Source: Thermoanaerobaculia bacterium (GTDB lineage Bacteria; Acidobacteriota; Thermoanaerobaculia; Gp7-AA8). Taken from it: a DNA stretch of 49,879 nucleotides. Location: contig JBBRMQ010000001.1 in NCBI GenBank assembly GCA_038230775.1, positions 1 through 49,879 of the forward strand, given 5' to 3'. This document shows positions 3,498 to 49,456 of this stretch, in pieces; within the stretch, counting starts at the first letter, position 1, and every line of letters begins with the position of its first letter. A program made the translations under genes and the position numbers. The notes beneath the pieces are model-generated. The model was not told the DNA's origin, made no database searches, and worked only from the letters and a program-made list of their open reading frames with translations.

Positions 3498-4394
3498 GTG
3501 AAGCCGCTCGCGATCACCCTCGGCGACCCCGCCGGTATCGGCGCCGAGGTGGTGTTCAAGGCGATCGAGACGATGGACGTGCCGGTCCGCGTCTTCGGCA
3601 GCCGCGCGTACAGCAATCCGCCGGGCGGCCTCGAGTTCGTCGATGTCGGCGGATCAGGCGCGATTCACTACGGCGAGATCTCTCCGGATTACGGCCGCAT
3701 CGCGCTTGCGTCGCTCGACGCCGCGCTGTCGGCGATCGAAAGCGGCGAGTGTTCGGCGCTCGTGACCGCCCCGATTCACAAACAATCGATCGCCGCGGCG
3801 GGAGCGCACTTTCCCGGTCACACGGAACTGCTCGCCGATCGCGCCGGCCTGACCCGCTACGCACACCAGTACGCGATGTACTTCGATTCGCCGCGATTGC
3901 GCGCGGTGCTTCTCTCGGTTCACCTGCCGCTTCGTGATGCCATCGCGCAGATTGCCGCCGAAGACATCGCGGCTCTGGCTCGATTGACCTCGCGCGAGTT
4001 TGCACGCATCTACGGACGCGCGCCCAGCATCGCTGTCGCCGGACTGAATCCGCACGCCGGCGAAGGTGGACAGTTCGGCGATGAGGAGGTCGAGATCCGT
4101 CGCGGCATCGAGCTATGCACCGGCCTCGATGTCACCGGACCGCATTCCGCCGATACAATTTTTCGACGAAAATACGACGTGGTGATGGCGATGTACCACG
4201 ACCAGGCATTGATCACCATCAAGACGCTCGCATTCGAGGAATCGGTGAACGTGACGCTCGGCCTTCCCTACCTCCGCGTTTCCGTCGATCACGGCACAGC
4301 GTTCGACATCGCGGGCAAAGGCATCGCGGACGCCGCTCCCATGCGTTACGCGATCGAGTGGGCGGTACGCCACGCGGAGAAGTTCAGCCGATGA
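3498..4394 (+). CDS. pdxA: 4-hydroxythreonine-4-phosphate dehydrogenase PdxA
   Basis: 298 aa with PdxA signatures: ITLGDPAGIG, TAPIHK, FPGHTE, GLNPHAGEGG, MYHDQ, and VSVDHGTAFDIAGKG. The start is GTG. Confidence 0.9.
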   Translation: MKPLAITLGDPAGIGAEVVFKAIETMDVPVRVFGSRAYSNPPGGLEFVDVGGSGAIHYGEISPDYGRIALASLDAALSAIESGECSALVTAPIHKQSIAAAGAHFPGHTELLADRAGLTRYAHQYAMYFDSPRLRAVLLSVHLPLRDAIAQIAAEDIAALARLTSREFARIYGRAPSIAVAGLNPHAGEGGQFGDEEVEIRRGIELCTGLDVTGPHSADTIFRRKYDVVMAMYHDQALITIKTLAFEESVNVTLGLPYLRVSVDHGTAFDIAGKGIADAAPMRYAIEWAVRHAEKFSR

Positions 4395-4522
4395 ACCGCT
4401 GGTCCATCCGCATCCTCGGCATCTTTCTGATCATCGCGTTCCTGCTGCTGATGGCGAACCTGCAGAAGCAACTGGTCATGATTCAGCGGCAGCGGCCGGC
4501 CACGACAACGACCACGCGTTGA
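4391..4522 (+). CDS. small hypothetical membrane protein (43 aa)
   Basis: Its ATG overlaps the pdxA stop (ATGA) and its own stop overlaps the TTG start of the next gene. It has a single hydrophobic helix (ILGIFLIIAFLLLMA). There is no homology evidence. Confidence 0.3.
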   Translation: MNRWSIRILGIFLIIAFLLLMANLQKQLVMIQRQRPATTTTTR

Positions 4523-5385
4523 AGAAGCACTGGATCGCGATCGTCATCCTCTTTCTCGTCGCCACAGCGTGGGGAGCGACGTTCACGCTCATCAAGTCCA
4601 TCCTCGCGCAGATCGCGCCCGAGCCCTTCATCTTCTGGCGGTTCACGATCGCCGGCATCGTGCTCATGATCGGCGCCATTGCGACCCGCCGTCTCCGTCG
4701 CCAGTCCTTGTGGCCGGGAGCGCTCCTCGGCTTCCTGGTGTTCGCGGGGTACTGGGCGCAGACGCACGGCCTGCTCACGATCAGTCCCTCGCGCTCCGCG
4801 CTGCTCACCGGCGTGTACGTGGTGATGGTTCCCTTCGCCGATCGGGTCTTGTACCGCGCGCGCATCGCGCTGTCGGCGTGGATCGGATCCGTGCTCGCGG
4901 TGGCGGGAACGTCGTTGCTGATCGGCGGTTTTCAGTCGCGGCCGCAATTCGGTGACGTGCTCACGCTCTTTTGCGCCGTTTGTTTTGCGCTGCACGTCGT
5001 GCTCTCGGCAAAGTACAGCGCGAGCATCTCCGCGCTGGGTCTCGCTGCCGTGCAGATTCTTTGCGTCGGGTTGTTTGCCGCGGTTCCGGCCGCGTTGGCG
5101 AAGAGGCCTCAGCCGACACGTCTGGTGGTCGGCGTGGTTCTCTTCACCGCCATCGTGACGACGGCGATCGCCTTCGTCGGTTTGATGTGGAGTCAGGCCC
5201 GCGTGACGGCGACCGAGGCGGCGGTGATGCTGGCGTTCGAGCCGGTGGCGGCGTCGTTCACGTCGGTCGTTTTCTACGGCGAGCCGGTGACGATCGCGTT
5301 CATCGCCGGCGCCGCTCTCATTCTGGCGGCAATGGTCCTGTCGCAACTGCCGGAGAGCCCGCGCCGCGATCCGATCGCGATGTGA
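4519..5385 (+). CDS. DMT superfamily (EamA-like) permease
   Basis: 288 aa with about 10 predicted TM helices. The N-terminus is typical of EamA proteins (AIVILFLVATAWGATFTLIK). The two-half repeat architecture also fits. Confidence 0.85.
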   Translation: MKKHWIAIVILFLVATAWGATFTLIKSILAQIAPEPFIFWRFTIAGIVLMIGAIATRRLRRQSLWPGALLGFLVFAGYWAQTHGLLTISPSRSALLTGVYVVMVPFADRVLYRARIALSAWIGSVLAVAGTSLLIGGFQSRPQFGDVLTLFCAVCFALHVVLSAKYSASISALGLAAVQILCVGLFAAVPAALAKRPQPTRLVVGVVLFTAIVTTAIAFVGLMWSQARVTATEAAVMLAFEPVAASFTSVVFYGEPVTIAFIAGAALILAAMVLSQLPESPRRDPIAM

Positions 5386-44717: not shown

Positions 44718-45146
44718 GTGGTGATCACTATGGTCACCGCCTTCCGCCTGTACCTCCTCCGCGCGACATACCTGATGATCTTTCTGTTTCTGACGACACA
44801 AATCTGGCCGCAGGTCATCGACCAGGCCACGCGCTATCCACTGATGAGTGGTGTCGCCCGCTGTCTGCTCGCGGCGATGGCGCCATTTTTCCTCCTCGGT
44901 CTCCGCCATCCGCTCAAGATGCTCCCCGTGCTTCTGTTCGAGCTCGCGTGGAAGGCGATCTGGGTCGCGGCGGTCGGCATGCCGCTGTGGTTCGCGCATG
45001 CGATCGACGCCAGCAACTACGCGACATTCAAAGCCTGCCTGATTGGGGTCATCGTCATTTCCGTCGTCATCCCGTGGCCGTACGTCATCGACGCGTATTT
45101 CCGGGCCGCCGGTGACCGGTGGAAACGTGCTCCGTCGGGCGCATAG
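44718..45146 (+). CDS. hypothetical four-TM membrane protein
   Basis: 142 aa, hydrophobic. It sits 24 nt upstream of the LytS-type kinase and is probably co-transcribed. The start is GTG 44718, or alternatively ATG 44730. Confidence 0.5.
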   Translation: MVITMVTAFRLYLLRATYLMIFLFLTTQIWPQVIDQATRYPLMSGVARCLLAAMAPFFLLGLRHPLKMLPVLLFELAWKAIWVAAVGMPLWFAHAIDASNYATFKACLIGVIVISVVIPWPYVIDAYFRAAGDRWKRAPSGA

Positions 45147-45169
45147 CCGGCGCGAGTATCCTGAGTGCG

Positions 45170-46240
45170 ATGTCCGACGTTGCAGCAGGTGCGAAGCCGA
45201 TCGGCGTCCTTGCGAAGACCCTCCGACGCTTCGCGGTCGCGCTGACGATTTCCATCGCCGCCGGCCTGCTCCTGGTCAGGGGGTGGCACAGTCCCGCAAC
45301 CTCGCTCTTTTTTCGCACGATCACGGTCGGGCTTACGGCTACGTTGGTGTTCGCGCTGTTCGAAGCGTGGCCCAGACGACTGCCCGATTGGCTGCAAAGG
45401 TGGGTGCTGCAGGTCGCTGCGGTCGGCGTCGCGATGCCGGTGACGACCCTGTTGCTCTGGGGCCTCTCGACCGCTCCGGGCGCGCCGCCGTTCTGGAAAG
45501 ACCGCGACCGCATGGATGGCTGGATGATGGTGACGTTCCTCTCCATCCTGCTCGCTCCGTGGACCGCGCTGGCAGCGATCGTCAGACAGAAGGAAGCGCT
45601 CGCGCGGCATCAGAAACTGGCCTTCGCGCTCGAACGCAGCGAGCTCGAACGACAGGCGCTCGACGCCCGGCTGCGTCTGCTGCAGGCGCAGGTCGCGCCA
45701 CATTTTCTCTTCAACACGCTCGCCAATGTGCAGGCGCTCGTCGACACCCGCTCGCCGTACGCATCGACGGTCCTTCGCAGCCTGGTCGCCTACCTGCGCG
45801 CCGCGGTCCCGGTGCTCGATGAACCGGCGGCGACGGTCGAGCGCGAGCTTCAACTCGTTCGCCCTTACCTGGAGCTCATGCAGATGCGCATCCCCGATCG
45901 TCTGCAGTACGCGATCAACATCGATCCATCCGCGCTCGAGGTGCGCTGCCCTCCAACCACGCTCCTGACACTGGTTGAGAATGCGGTTCGTCACGGCATC
46001 GATCCGAGCGAGGAAGGAGGGCGGATCGACATCGACATCCAGCGCCGCGGCGGTCGTTGCCTCATCCGCGTTACCGACACCGGAGCCGGCCTGCACCACT
46101 CCGCCAGGGGTTTGGGGACTGGTCTCACCACGCTGCGGGAGCGGCTGAAACTCATTTTCGGCGACGACGCACAACTGCGCCTGACGACAGCAGAGCGTTC
46201 GGGAGCGCGCGCCGAGGTCGAAATGCCGGCCCGGATATGA
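45170..46240 (+). CDS. LytS/AlgZ-type sensor histidine kinase (His_kinase PF06580 type)
   Basis: Four TM helices are followed by LQAQVAPHFLFNTLANV (the family H-box region) and an HATPase_c domain (LVENAVRHGI, DTGAG, GTGL.TLRERL). ATG 45170 is chosen because it lies after the upstream stop. Confidence 0.85.
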   Translation: MSDVAAGAKPIGVLAKTLRRFAVALTISIAAGLLLVRGWHSPATSLFFRTITVGLTATLVFALFEAWPRRLPDWLQRWVLQVAAVGVAMPVTTLLLWGLSTAPGAPPFWKDRDRMDGWMMVTFLSILLAPWTALAAIVRQKEALARHQKLAFALERSELERQALDARLRLLQAQVAPHFLFNTLANVQALVDTRSPYASTVLRSLVAYLRAAVPVLDEPAATVERELQLVRPYLELMQMRIPDRLQYAINIDPSALEVRCPPTTLLTLVENAVRHGIDPSEEGGRIDIDIQRRGGRCLIRVTDTGAGLHHSARGLGTGLTTLRERLKLIFGDDAQLRLTTAERSGARAEVEMPARI

Positions 46241-47028
46241 GCGGGCATCCGACGGCACTGATCGCGGACGACGAGCCGCTGCTGCGCGAATCCCTGCGGA
46301 CGCAGCTGGCGGACGCCTGGCCCGAGCTCCAGATCGTCGCCGCGGCCCGGAACGGACGCGAGGCCATCCGCCTGTTCGACGAGCGTCATCCCGACATCTG
46401 CTTCCTCGACGTGCAGATGCCCGGCCTGTCCGGCGTCGATGCTGCCAATCACATCGGGCGCCGCGCGCATCTGGTCTTCGTCACCGCTTTCGATCATTAC
46501 GCCGTGCAGGCATTCGCGCAGGGTGCACTCGATTACCTTCTGAAACCGGTCGAGCACGCGCGGCTCGCGGAGACGGTGAGTCGTCTCAAAGAACGCTTGC
46601 GCGCGGCGCGGCCTGCGATCAACACCGAGCATCTATTGCAGCAACTCGCCGCTCAGCTCGACAGGCTGCAGTCCGGCGGTACGAACAGCGAGCCGCTCCG
46701 CTGGATCCGCGCGCAGGCCGGGAAAACCGTTCGCCTCATCTCGACGGACGACGTCGACTATCTGCGTTCCGATGCGAAGTACACGCTCGTCGGGTGGAGG
46801 GATGGCAGCAAACCCGCCGAAGCGGTGGTGCGGACACCGCTCAAGGAGCTCCTTGCGCAACTCGACCCCGGGCAATTCGTGCAGGTCCATCGGTCCGTCG
46901 TCGTGAACCTGCGCGCAATCAGCCACGTCAAGCGACACGACAACGAGACGGCCGAGATTCACGTCAAGGGACGACCCGATGTGCTTCCGGTCAGCCGAAA
47001 TTACATGCACGTCTTCCGGCAGATGTAG
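46237..47028 (+). CDS. LytR/AlgR family response regulator (receiver + LytTR DNA-binding domain)
   Basis: It has a receiver domain (ALIADDEPLLRE, DICFLDVQMPGLSG, VFVTAFDHYA, DYLLKP) and a LytTR domain (DDVDYLRSDAKYTLV ... FVQVHRSVVVNL). Its ATG overlaps the kinase stop (ATGA). Confidence 0.9.
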   Translation: MSGHPTALIADDEPLLRESLRTQLADAWPELQIVAAARNGREAIRLFDERHPDICFLDVQMPGLSGVDAANHIGRRAHLVFVTAFDHYAVQAFAQGALDYLLKPVEHARLAETVSRLKERLRAARPAINTEHLLQQLAAQLDRLQSGGTNSEPLRWIRAQAGKTVRLISTDDVDYLRSDAKYTLVGWRDGSKPAEAVVRTPLKELLAQLDPGQFVQVHRSVVVNLRAISHVKRHDNETAEIHVKGRPDVLPVSRNYMHVFRQM

Positions 47029-47122: not shown

Positions 47123-47168
47123 TGGAGCGGGCGACGGGGTTCGAACCCGCGACCTTGAGCTTGGGAAG
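47123..47168 (-). repeat. 46-nt perfect copy of the 3' half of tRNA-Gly(CCC) (att-like direct repeat / tRNA fragment)
   Basis: TGGAGCGGGCGACGGGGTTCGAACCCGCGACCTTGAGCTTGGGAAG is identical to 49381-49426, in the same orientation. It covers CCA, the acceptor 3' strand, the T-arm, the variable loop and the 3' side of the anticodon arm. The 5' half is absent. Confidence 0.9.
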
Positions 47169-47290
47169 ATTCCGTGCCGCTTGCGGACGCTTCCATACGA
47201 GAGGAGTTCTCTTTTGCAGATGCCGTCCGCAAGCATCCCCGAGCGTCTGCTGATCGGTTGATGGTTTGTAGTCGATGTGTTCCCGGTCCG

Positions 47291-48799
47291 CTACTGTTTG
47301 ATGACGATCGCCTTACCGTTCGCTTCCCACGTGAGGTGCTGTTCGCGAAGGATGAGGTCGAACGCTTCGTCCCAAGGCATGTCTTTGACGTCGAGCGTGA
47401 CCTTTCCTTCCAGGGATGGCGGGTATTGGATGTCGGTCCCGGTGATCTTGGCGAACGTCTTCAGAACATCTTTGATGTCCGCCGCTTTCAGGTTGAGGCT
47501 GATCAAGGCGCCGGTATAGCGAGACTCCCGGGGCCTGTCGGTTTGCGGCGTTGCGAAGTACGTCGACTCCTGCTGCGGTACTCCGCCCTGTGAGACGCGC
47601 AGCACCGCGCTCACCTTGCTTCCGGTGTCGCGGACCTCGACCTGGATGTCGCGATCGCCGGCCACAGTGCGCGTGCTCGCACTCGACCCGCGGGGAAAGA
47701 TGACATTCGGTTGCGCGATGAGGTGGTCCGTCGACACTTCGATCACGCGGCCGAAGAAGGCCAGCGTGTTTGGCTCCTCACCGGGACGGATGTAAAAGTT
47801 GAGCTTGAACGGTTTTTCGTTCGAGTCGGAAGACGTGGCGGCGTGCAGTCCGCCTCCGATGGTCACGCCGAGGACGGCGATGGTGGCAAGAGTCATGACG
47901 AGGCGATGGGATAGAGCACGGGTGCGGAGAAGTTCGTAGCGCATGATGTGATTCAACCTTTCTTGTAGATGCGCGCTGGCCATACACGACACGCCGGCGA
48001 GGCGCGACGCGAGGACGGCGCGGCAGATTTTGGAGAGAGCGGAGATGTATGTGTCGACGGCGTCTGCAGTGGCGGCGGCCGTTTCATCGCACGCCTCCTC
48101 GCGTGCGGTGGAAAGGGCGCGCTGCGCGATCCAGACGAGCGGATGAAACCAGAAGACGGAGACGATGGCCGATTCGAGGAGACCGACAAGGTTGTCGCGC
48201 CGCGCCACATGCGCGCATTCGTGGCGGAGCAAGGATTCGAGCTCGTCGTCGTCGAGCGCATCGCAGCCGCCGTCTGGAAGGACAACGACGGGACGGATGA
48301 TGCGGACCACCGCCGGAGCCTCGCAGATGCTGGAGCGTGTGACCTCCACGCTGGTCCGCAGCCCCAGTTGCCGGCGTGCATCCGCAAGCGCGGCGCGCTC
48401 GCGTGGCAAAGCGGGATGGCTTGTGCGCAACGCCGAGGAGACGAGCCGCCGTCGAGCGATGGCCCAGCCGATTGCCAGCGCCGCTGCCGGCACCATCCAG
48501 CCCATGGCGACGGCTTGCGGCCAGCGGCTTGCCGGCTGCGGCATCATCGTGCGGAGGGTCACGGGGCCGCCTAACCACTGCATCGAGATCGCGCCTGCCG
48601 GCCGGCCGATGTTTGCCAGATCGATTCCCAACCACCGCAGCGGCGTTGTGATCACAGCAGCAGGAATCGCAAACTTGAACAGCGCGCAGAGCAGGACCGC
48701 ATGACGCGTTCTGGCGGTGAGAGGGAGCACGCGCACTGCAGCGAGCGCGACGAGCAGGACGAGGGTGGAGCTCCAGAGATGCGTGACGATGACGTTCAT
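47291..48799 (-). CDS. BlaR1-like M56 family membrane metallopeptidase/signal transducer
   Basis: It has four N-terminal TM helices and the zinc motif HECAHVARRD, followed by FWFHPLVW. The C-terminal extracytoplasmic region ends in a secretin-N/STN-like module. Its start overlaps the blaI-like stop. Confidence 0.85.
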   Translation of the reverse strand: MNVIVTHLWSSTLVLLVALAAVRVLPLTARTRHAVLLCALFKFAIPAAVITTPLRWLGIDLANIGRPAGAISMQWLGGPVTLRTMMPQPASRWPQAVAMGWMVPAAALAIGWAIARRRLVSSALRTSHPALPRERAALADARRQLGLRTSVEVTRSSICEAPAVVRIIRPVVVLPDGGCDALDDDELESLLRHECAHVARRDNLVGLLESAIVSVFWFHPLVWIAQRALSTAREEACDETAAATADAVDTYISALSKICRAVLASRLAGVSCMASAHLQERLNHIMRYELLRTRALSHRLVMTLATIAVLGVTIGGGLHAATSSDSNEKPFKLNFYIRPGEEPNTLAFFGRVIEVSTDHLIAQPNVIFPRGSSASTRTVAGDRDIQVEVRDTGSKVSAVLRVSQGGVPQQESTYFATPQTDRPRESRYTGALISLNLKAADIKDVLKTFAKITGTDIQYPPSLEGKVTLDVKDMPWDEAFDLILREQHLTWEANGKAIVIKQ

Positions 48800-49227
48800 T
48801 TGCGACTCCGTTTGGCGAGGGCGCGACGCGATTCAGGCCGCCTGCGAGCGTCGGACTCCTCCGCACGCTTTTCGAGGGCCTTGATGTCTTCCAGCGTCAG
48901 CTTGCCACTCTCGAGGAGGTGAGCGACGACAGGCTGGGCCGATCCGCCAAAGAGGTCCAGAAACTCATCGATCAGGCGCCGATAGACCGATTTGCGGGTG
49001 ATGAGCGGCTCGAACATCAGCGCGTTGCCGATCTTGCGGCTGCGGCGGACCGCCTCCTTCTGTTCCAGCCGCTGAATGATCGTCTGCACCGTCGTATAGG
49101 CCGGCCGGCTTTCCTCGGGGATCTCTTCCTGGACCTCACGCACCGACGCTTCGCCAAGGCGCCAGAGGAGGTCCATGATCTCGAGCTCGAAAGGGGTGAG
49201 ACGAATCGTTGTTTTCATCGCCAGCAA
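48796..49227 (-). CDS. BlaI/MecI/CopY family transcriptional repressor
   Basis: It has the Penicillinase_R winged helix (LTPFELEIMDLLWRLGEASVREVQEEI....AYTTVQTIIQRLEQKEAV.R). The start is TTG 49227, or more likely ATG 49218 (MKTTIRL). Confidence 0.88.
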   Translation of the reverse strand: MLAMKTTIRLTPFELEIMDLLWRLGEASVREVQEEIPEESRPAYTTVQTIIQRLEQKEAVRRSRKIGNALMFEPLITRKSVYRRLIDEFLDLFGGSAQPVVAHLLESGKLTLEDIKALEKRAEESDARRRPESRRALAKRSRK

Positions 49228-49251
49228 TACCTACCTCAGTTGACGTTCACT

Positions 49252-49280
49252 AAACTACATCCGTAGTAGACAAATGTCAA
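49252..49280 (-). promoter_or_regulatory. candidate sigma70-type promoter with embedded palindromic operator upstream of blaI-like gene
   Basis: On the minus strand: TTGACA (49280-49275), a 17-nt spacer, then TAGTTT (49257-49252). The palindrome ACTAC-N4-GTAGT (49254-49267) overlaps the spacer and the -10 element. Confidence 0.35.
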
Positions 49281-49380
49281 GGGGCAAGCGCTCGATCGCT
49301 TCCTGCGGCGCGCGGGCGCAATGAGTTGCCTTTGGAGCGCCGGCGCGGCGGCCTCGCCGAAGTCGTTCTAAGAGGAAGTC

Positions 49381-49456
49381 TGGAGCGGGCGACGGGGTTC
49401 GAACCCGCGACCTTGAGCTTGGGAAGCTCCGACTCTACCAACTGAGCTACGCCCGC
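49381..49456 (-). tRNA. tRNA-Gly: tRNA-Gly (anticodon CCC)
   Basis: The reverse complement folds as a 76-nt cloverleaf. The acceptor is GCGGGCG/CGCCCGC and the D arm is GCTCAGTTGGTAGAGT. The anticodon loop TTCCCAA reads CCC. The T arm is GCGGGTTCGAACCCCGT. The discriminator is U and CCA is encoded. Confidence 0.92.

Follow-up and report, generated by a model that had tools for sequence, protein, structure and literature searches.

A small blaI/blaR1-like islet bounded by tRNA-Gly(CCC) and a direct repeat of its 3' part in a Thermoanaerobaculia contig

The window analysed here is the whole stretch of 49,879 nucleotides that makes up contig JBBRMQ010000001.1 of a Thermoanaerobaculia bacterium (assembly GCA_038230775.1). 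Close to its right end two identical copies of a 46-nt sequence, one of them being the 3' part of a tRNA-Gly(CCC) gene, enclose an islet of 2,212 bp (47169–49380) that consists of one self-contained operon and unique ends. The operon encodes a BlaI-family repressor and a BlaR1-like membrane metalloprotease, and in agreement with a preliminary description of the locus no integrase is present.

The repeat, the tRNA gene and the enclosed operon

Positions 47123–47168 and 49381–49426 are identical in 46 of 46 nucleotides and have the same orientation, as found by reading of the sequence, by a repeat search and by a DNA search. The 46-mer gives two matches in the window at up to three mismatches, with 0.00 expected from 100 dinucleotide-preserving shuffles, and neither a third nor a degenerate copy was found in the window when either half was searched at up to three mismatches. 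The only tRNA called by ARAGORN in the window is tRNA-Gly(CCC) with an encoded CCA, located at 49381–49456 on the minus strand and supported by Rfam (RF00005, 61.7 bits, E-value 2.7e-12); this intact gene is the proposed integration target and should represent the attL side of the islet (att, attachment site). On the tRNA strand the repeat reads CTTCCCAAGCTCAAGGTCGCGGGTTCGAACCCCGTCGCCCGCTCCA and constitutes the 3' 46 nt of the gene, the encoded CCA included. Both the direct repeat and its derivation from the tRNA gene had been proposed in the preliminary description and are borne out by these searches, by ARAGORN and by Rfam.

The proximal copy (49381–49426, minus strand) contains C31, the anticodon loop and 3' stem, the variable loop, the T arm, the 3' strand of the acceptor and the CCA, and the repeat thus spans tRNA positions 31–76. 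The identity had been described as stopping within the anticodon loop, but it covers the whole 7-nt loop and one base of the 5' anticodon stem, beyond which similarity vanishes abruptly and completely. The distal copy (47123–47168, minus strand) is called as a tRNA by neither ARAGORN nor Rfam and should not be annotated as a tRNA gene; it is a putative displaced 3' tRNA fragment of attR type, followed by the chromosomal flank. This flank opens past the CCA with an A-rich AAT, like the native flanks of this tRNA in most of the metagenome contigs that contain it. The distal copy is not under selection as a tRNA, and the 46/46 identity bounds neutral divergence since insertion to about 6.5% per site or less (5% level).

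The intact 76-nt tRNA is identical in nine soil metagenome contigs from JGI with unrelated flanks, and the perfect repeat is therefore uninformative on the donor. The further copies of the 46-mer that the preliminary description had suggested looking for were not found outside intact tRNA genes, since all nine copies in the JGI metagenomes are intact tRNAs, and viral contigs contained no copy.

The interval between the repeats contains two overlapping genes on the minus strand, the stop codon of blaI overlapping the start of the blaR1-like gene. The first gene (48796–49218, with an ATG start at 49218) encodes a winged-helix repressor of the BlaI family with 140 residues, which matches Penicillinase_R (PF03965) with an E-value of 1.7e-28 over 114 of 115 profile positions. 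The second (47291–48799) encodes a BlaR1-like membrane metalloprotease of the M56 family with 502 residues (PF05569, 2.1e-26) and the motif HECAH. The C-terminus of this protein is an STN domain (PF07660, 4.7e-09), an architecture common to the whole M56 orthogroup, and the C-terminal 160 residues match only STN and GspD-N0 (PF21305, 1.5e-4). No penicillin-binding, transpeptidase or beta-lactamase sensor domain was found in the protein with Pfam, and a linked resistance gene such as blaZ or mecA is absent, the islet having no third gene. The repressor, the M56 protease and their promoter thus stand as previously described, whereas the label of BlaR1 sensor-protease does not, because the penicillin-binding sensor domain is missing. 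Since both this domain and a linked resistance gene are lacking, the gene pair is predicted to be BlaI/BlaR1-like in mechanism but does not belong to the beta-lactam-sensing systems.

The blaI promoter/operator (49252–49280, minus strand) is a near-invariant block in seven aligned loci, the window and six orthologous loci. It has a -35 region TTGACA (49280–49275) and, after a 17-nt spacer, the hexamer TAGTTT (49257–49252). A scan for terminator and promoter consensus sequences gave nothing, and the promoter was recognised from its conservation alone. The dyad CTACTACGGATGTAGTTT (49269–49252), with the structure ACTAC-N4-GTAGT, overlaps the spacer and the -10 box, and TTGACA-N5-CTACTACGGATGTAGTTT is near-invariant upstream of the blaI orthologues in L081, L082, L084, L095, L096 and L097. 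The operator occurs once in the window, and the dyad is likely to be the autoregulatory site of BlaI.

Similarity to the orthologous operons extends precisely from the -35 box to the stop codon of the blaR1-like gene, leaving one unique end on each side. The 97 nt from the tRNA 3' end to the -35 box (49284–49380, minus strand) are unlike the upstream regions of the six orthologous operons, and might be an attP arm or a remnant of the donor context. The 122 nt between the blaR1 stop codon and the distal repeat (47169–47290, minus strand) are unlike the downstream regions of orthologous operons and hold a hairpin with an 11-bp stem (47234–47224/47189–47179), the fold z-score of which is only -1.8.

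No integrase, recombinase, transposase, phage or conjugation domain was detected by Pfam among the about 45 open reading frames (ORFs) of the 49.9-kb contig. These encode ordinary chromosomal functions, including an electron transfer flavoprotein (ETF), PdxA, ATP-binding cassette (ABC) and MacB transporters, TonB-dependent receptors, an aldehyde dehydrogenase, a Kup transporter and two two-component systems. One of the latter, a LytS-type kinase with a LytTR regulator (45119–47028), forms the left chromosomal flank of the islet. Its LytTR response regulator (46237–47028, plus strand; PF00072 and PF04397) is the last gene before the distal repeat and lies outside the islet. To the right of the tRNA a gene is represented by a 103-residue N-terminus, which has no detectable homologue.

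Related loci and similar islets

An empty site was sought from the left flank by a GTDB scan with the LytTR regulator, which yielded 80 species-level loci (L001–L080). The LytS/LytTR two-gene module was found in 80 species-level genomes, mostly metagenome-assembled genomes (MAGs) of Vicinamibacterales and Thermoanaerobaculia, with 73–86% amino acid identity. None of the 80 loci has a tRNA-Gly gene, blaI or blaR1 near the regulator, and only the histidine kinase–response regulator pair is syntenic. The best homologue of the response regulator among 5.8 billion proteins is 86% identical, and in the two closest contexts (L099 and L100) the regulator is followed by a DUF4386 gene and no tRNA. The empty site in relatives proposed in the preliminary description, with a tRNA directly after the regulator, was accordingly not seen.

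The LytS/LytTR pair is moreover very widespread and conserved, with over 5,000 protein clusters at E≤1e-100 that level off at 83–86% identity. The MAGs that contain it are labelled Acidobacteriota, Gemmatimonadota, Gammaproteobacteria or Acidimicrobiia, and its neighbours are not syntenic. A mobile module, strong constraint or binning errors might each explain this spread without synteny.

The BlaR1-like orthogroup is present at 50–75% identity in Thermoanaerobaculia and Acidobacteriota metagenomes, and an exact-sequence look-up of the BlaR1-like protein of the window gave no match. Nine orthologous operon contexts were compared (L081, L082, L084, L095, L096, L097, L101, L102 and short duplicates). 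None of these contains a tRNA, a tRNA-Gly fragment, a flanking direct repeat of at least 14 nt or an adjacent integrase, and the association with a tRNA is therefore specific to the window locus. The neighbours of the orthologous operons are largely unrelated, except for a divergent Kelch gene common to L101 and L102. A parent element for the islet was found neither in these contexts nor in phage, plasmid and IMG/VR collections.

Two further observations concern the orthologous operons. The Kelch-repeat gene is divergent from the operator region in both L101 and L102, which makes it a candidate regulon member. At the end of an ENA contig (L084:1–95), about 80 nt upstream of the orthologous blaI, there is a perfect 31-nt inverted repeat with a 33-nt gap, which may be either a terminal assembly hairpin or the end of a miniature inverted-repeat transposable element (MITE) or insertion sequence (IS).

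Among the nine soil contigs that share the identical tRNA-Gly(CCC) gene, L089 (Ga0066706_10013634, from JGI), which has 57% GC and comes from a different organism, bears another islet in this gene. This islet is bounded by the 29-nt perfect direct repeat TATTTGGAGCGGGCGACGGGGTTCGAACC at 1098–1126 and 4487–4515, which begins in the T loop and ends 4 nt beyond the CCA. The insert of 3,360 bp encodes a protein with an AraC-type helix-turn-helix and three ORFs without Pfam match, and it contains no integrase. In L086, L091 (170–320) and L093 (813–963) the same left flank, with 92–98% identity, is joined directly to an intact tRNA and only one 29-mer is present. These three contigs are the precise empty site of the L089 islet, and insertion or excision is demonstrated at this locus; the same islet was also recovered from another sample (L094). 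A third case is found in L050 (MAG contig CAWJVW010000005.1, 3592–5259), where a tRNA-Gln(CTG) gene is followed by an insert of 1.56 kb that contains one ORF for a membrane protein (4096–5025, minus strand) and no integrase. A perfect 24-nt repeat of the 3' end of this tRNA encloses the insert, the right flank of which is 96% identical to L064:18482–19264, from a MAG labelled Acidimicrobiia.

Small integrase-less inserts bounded by tRNA fragments thus recur in these soil bacteria, although 9 of the 28 tRNAs compared were picked through the 46-mer and this biased sample permits no claim on frequency. A different arrangement is found at L058:2784–4654 in a Gemmatimonadales MAG, where two tandem tRNA-Val(TAC) genes are situated about 1.8 kb apart.

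Origin of the islet

A complete tRNA gene that is accompanied by a downstream 3' fragment in the same orientation delimits tRNA-integrated islands (PMC4383910; PMC9897764). According to Islander, 2083 of 3919 islands are centred on the anticodon and 3760 of the 3919 have a 3' fragment, and the anticodon loop, the T loop and the T/acceptor junction are recognised subsites for crossover (PMC4383910). Such tRNA fragments are reported to be pervasive in the role of attR sites, the 44-bp repeats of PYG1 being one example (PMC9897764). Elements that have kept their att sites but lost the genes for integration and transfer are an established concept, the cis-mobilizable element or CIME (PMC5704250). 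In the window a complete tRNA gene, an insert and a 3' fragment in the same orientation follow each other, with identity from the anticodon loop onwards. This is the attL/attR arrangement of tyrosine-integrase islands, and the structural reading in the preliminary description is upheld in this respect. The two unique ends of 97 and 122 nt and the 46-nt core add up to 265 nt, which is a typical size for an attP, as in lambda-type sites.

We consider it probable that the islet is a non-autonomous, CIME-like remnant of an integration mediated by a tyrosine integrase. A circular DNA, the attP of which contained 46 bp identical to the 3' part of tRNA-Gly(CCC), would have recombined with the chromosomal tRNA gene. 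We infer that a tyrosine-type integrase was the catalyst and that the strand exchange took place within or at the anticodon loop. The event would have rebuilt a complete tRNA beside the insert (attL) and left the original 3' half displaced by 2.26 kb on the downstream side (attR). The blaI/blaR1-like operon should have come in as part of the integrating DNA; if it had been native beside the tRNA, the displaced fragment would be expected between the tRNA and the operon, so that the operon must be cargo. The integrase and other genes were most likely deleted after integration, which would leave what is seen at the locus, namely two presumptive att cores, about 100 nt of unique DNA per end, one self-regulated operon and no recombinase. 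The islet should now be immobile, save for the action of a compatible integrase supplied from elsewhere. By analogy, the L089 islet is a precedent at the same target gene.

Several results weigh against such an origin. No integrase pseudogene is found in the islet, nor is there room for one, and the longest motif common to both ends is 7 nt, typical of shuffles, so that no arm-type repeats for integrase binding are seen in both beyond chance. Only 423 bp of the contig remain past the 5' end of the tRNA, with the rest of the genome unseen. Public data contain no empty site for the window locus, since the lineage has not been sampled (the best homologue of a flank is 86% identical in amino acids), and no excised form of the islet is available. 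The best copy of the operon in public data is 75% identical in amino acids, and this lack of a near-identical copy means that there is no sign of recent spread; phage, plasmid and IMG/VR collections contain no relative of the islet besides the tRNA. The GC content is 0.629 in the islet versus 0.632 in the contig, the tetranucleotide distance of the islet from the contig profile falls at the 30th percentile of windows of the same size, and both GC3 (GC at third codon positions) and codon log-likelihood of the two islet genes are within the range of the contig genes.

The contrast to the flanks in GC and codon usage that the preliminary description had looked to is consequently not seen, nor is one in tetranucleotide composition, and a foreign composition of the islet was rejected on all of these measures. 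Composition gives no hint of a foreign origin; any donor should have been alike in this respect, and was probably a related Acidobacteriota lineage.

The very compact layout without pseudogene debris, with ends of the size of attP arms, would also fit an islet that never had an integrase. It would then be a functional miniature cassette, made up of an attP of about 265 nt and the operon, that relies for excision and integration on a tRNA-Gly-specific integrase supplied in trans, either by another part of the genome or by a visiting element. The islets of L089 (3.4 kb and strain-polymorphic) and L050 (1.6 kb) are two more tiny, repeat-bounded and integrase-less tRNA inserts that speak for such a way of life. 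However, neither a second copy of the window islet nor one of its ends was found in the searched collections, arm-type repeats are not detectable and there is no known partner integrase. The three islets moreover differ in repeat extent and have unrelated cargo, and therefore do not form one family. We regard the miniature cassette as unlikely. An origin without any integrase, in which the distal 46-mer is a second tRNA-Gly(CCC) gene that lost its 5' part, or in which a single RecA crossover took place through the 46-bp homology, is somewhat less likely still. Tandem full duplicates of a tRNA exist in this group, such as the tRNA-Val(TAC) pair mentioned above, and the host-like composition of the insert fits a native origin. 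On the other hand the breakpoint is within one base of the anticodon-loop boundary used by integrases, similarity on its 5' side is gone abruptly and completely, and a decaying duplicate should have gathered substitutions whereas the identity is 46/46. For RecA recombination 46 bp is near the lower length limit, and the donor circle would still need a tRNA segment.

An assembly artefact, a chimeric contig joined through the short shared tRNA segment, has to be considered since the window is a complete metagenomic contig and the feature is at most 2.8 kb from its right end. Both copies of the repeat have unique sequence on either side, and they span less than a normal read length; the 5'-less tRNA fragment must therefore exist in the sample however the contig was joined. 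With a composition that is uniform over the junctions and no terminal overlap or hairpin, an artefact appears very improbable. A remnant of integrase-mediated integration is the origin that we prefer.

A broader proposal can be made from the same loci, that miniature tRNA-gene cassettes without an integrase, moved in trans, form a class of elements in soil Acidobacteriota and their neighbours, though at present we would call this a speculative and rather improbable one. The cassettes may be 1.6–3.4 kb in size with one to four genes and about 100–400 nt of att-arm DNA, and would be an integrase-dependent counterpart of MITEs or integron cassettes. The islets of the window, of L089 (where gain or loss is shown by polymorphism) and of tRNA-Gln in L050 would then belong to this class and carry small regulatory or envelope modules from place to place.

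If the preferred origin is true, a stand-alone signal-transduction pair of a repressor and a membrane protease has moved as the cargo of an integrative element within an Acidobacteriota lineage that is poorly sampled, and tRNA-Gly(CCC) would be a recurrent insertion site there with two different sublocations. Island finders that demand an integrase will miss islets of this type. The understanding of site-specific integration is unchanged, and only cassettes mobilised in trans would be of wider interest.

Comparison with known systems

The gene pair itself resembles BlaI/BlaR1 (MecI/MecR1) of Staphylococcus and Bacillus, found on Tn552 and SCCmec. In both cases a Penicillinase_R gene is followed by an overlapping M56 gene, an operator dyad is situated inside the promoter of the pair, and the pair is carried on DNA that was inserted or, in the window, appears to have been. 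Unlike the beta-lactam systems, the M56 protein of the window has an STN domain in place of a penicillin-binding sensor, and no beta-lactamase gene or gene for a penicillin-binding protein (PBP) target is linked to it.

The closest parallel in position is the L089 islet, which has the same target tRNA, a small size, no integrase, a perfect repeat of the tRNA 3' end and a transcription regulator among its cargo. It differs by its 29-nt repeat, another crossover subsite and unrelated cargo, and empty sites are documented for L089 alone.

Like the islands of Islander (PMC4383910), for example PYG1 of Pyrococcus yayanosii with its 44-bp repeats (PMC9897764), the window locus has a complete tRNA with a cognate 3' fragment in the same orientation, and an identity block of about 45 bp that is centred on the anticodon loop and reaches the tRNA 3' end. 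The inner end of the fragment falls at a recognised crossover subsite. In contrast to these islands no tyrosine integrase (PF00589) is encoded in the interval, where only the two islet genes are found, or in the about 43 further ORFs of the contig, the islet is 5–10 times smaller than is typical, and it has no phage or conjugation genes.

The CIMEs (PMC5704250) come nearest in kind. The islet, with cargo only and no integrase, excisionase or transfer genes, lies between two direct repeats of att type, and the 3' end of the target gene provides one of these. Judged from the sequence attL and attR would both be retained, as two perfect 46-bp cores, and nothing is left inside except blaI and the blaR1-like gene. 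It is unlike described CIMEs in its location in an uncultured Acidobacteriota lineage, in its size of 2.2 kb with one operon and in having no tandem partner. CIMEs arise by decay of an integrative and conjugative element (ICE) or an integrative and mobilizable element (IME), and can be mobilised once a related element inserts beside them (accretion) or provides an integrase. In the islet no remnant of an ICE or IME gene was found, and no related intact element was found either. The islet belongs to a known category, as a stranded or helper-dependent remnant that is ordinary in kind, and what is new compared with the systems above is the uncultured lineage, the unusually small size and the purely regulatory cargo.

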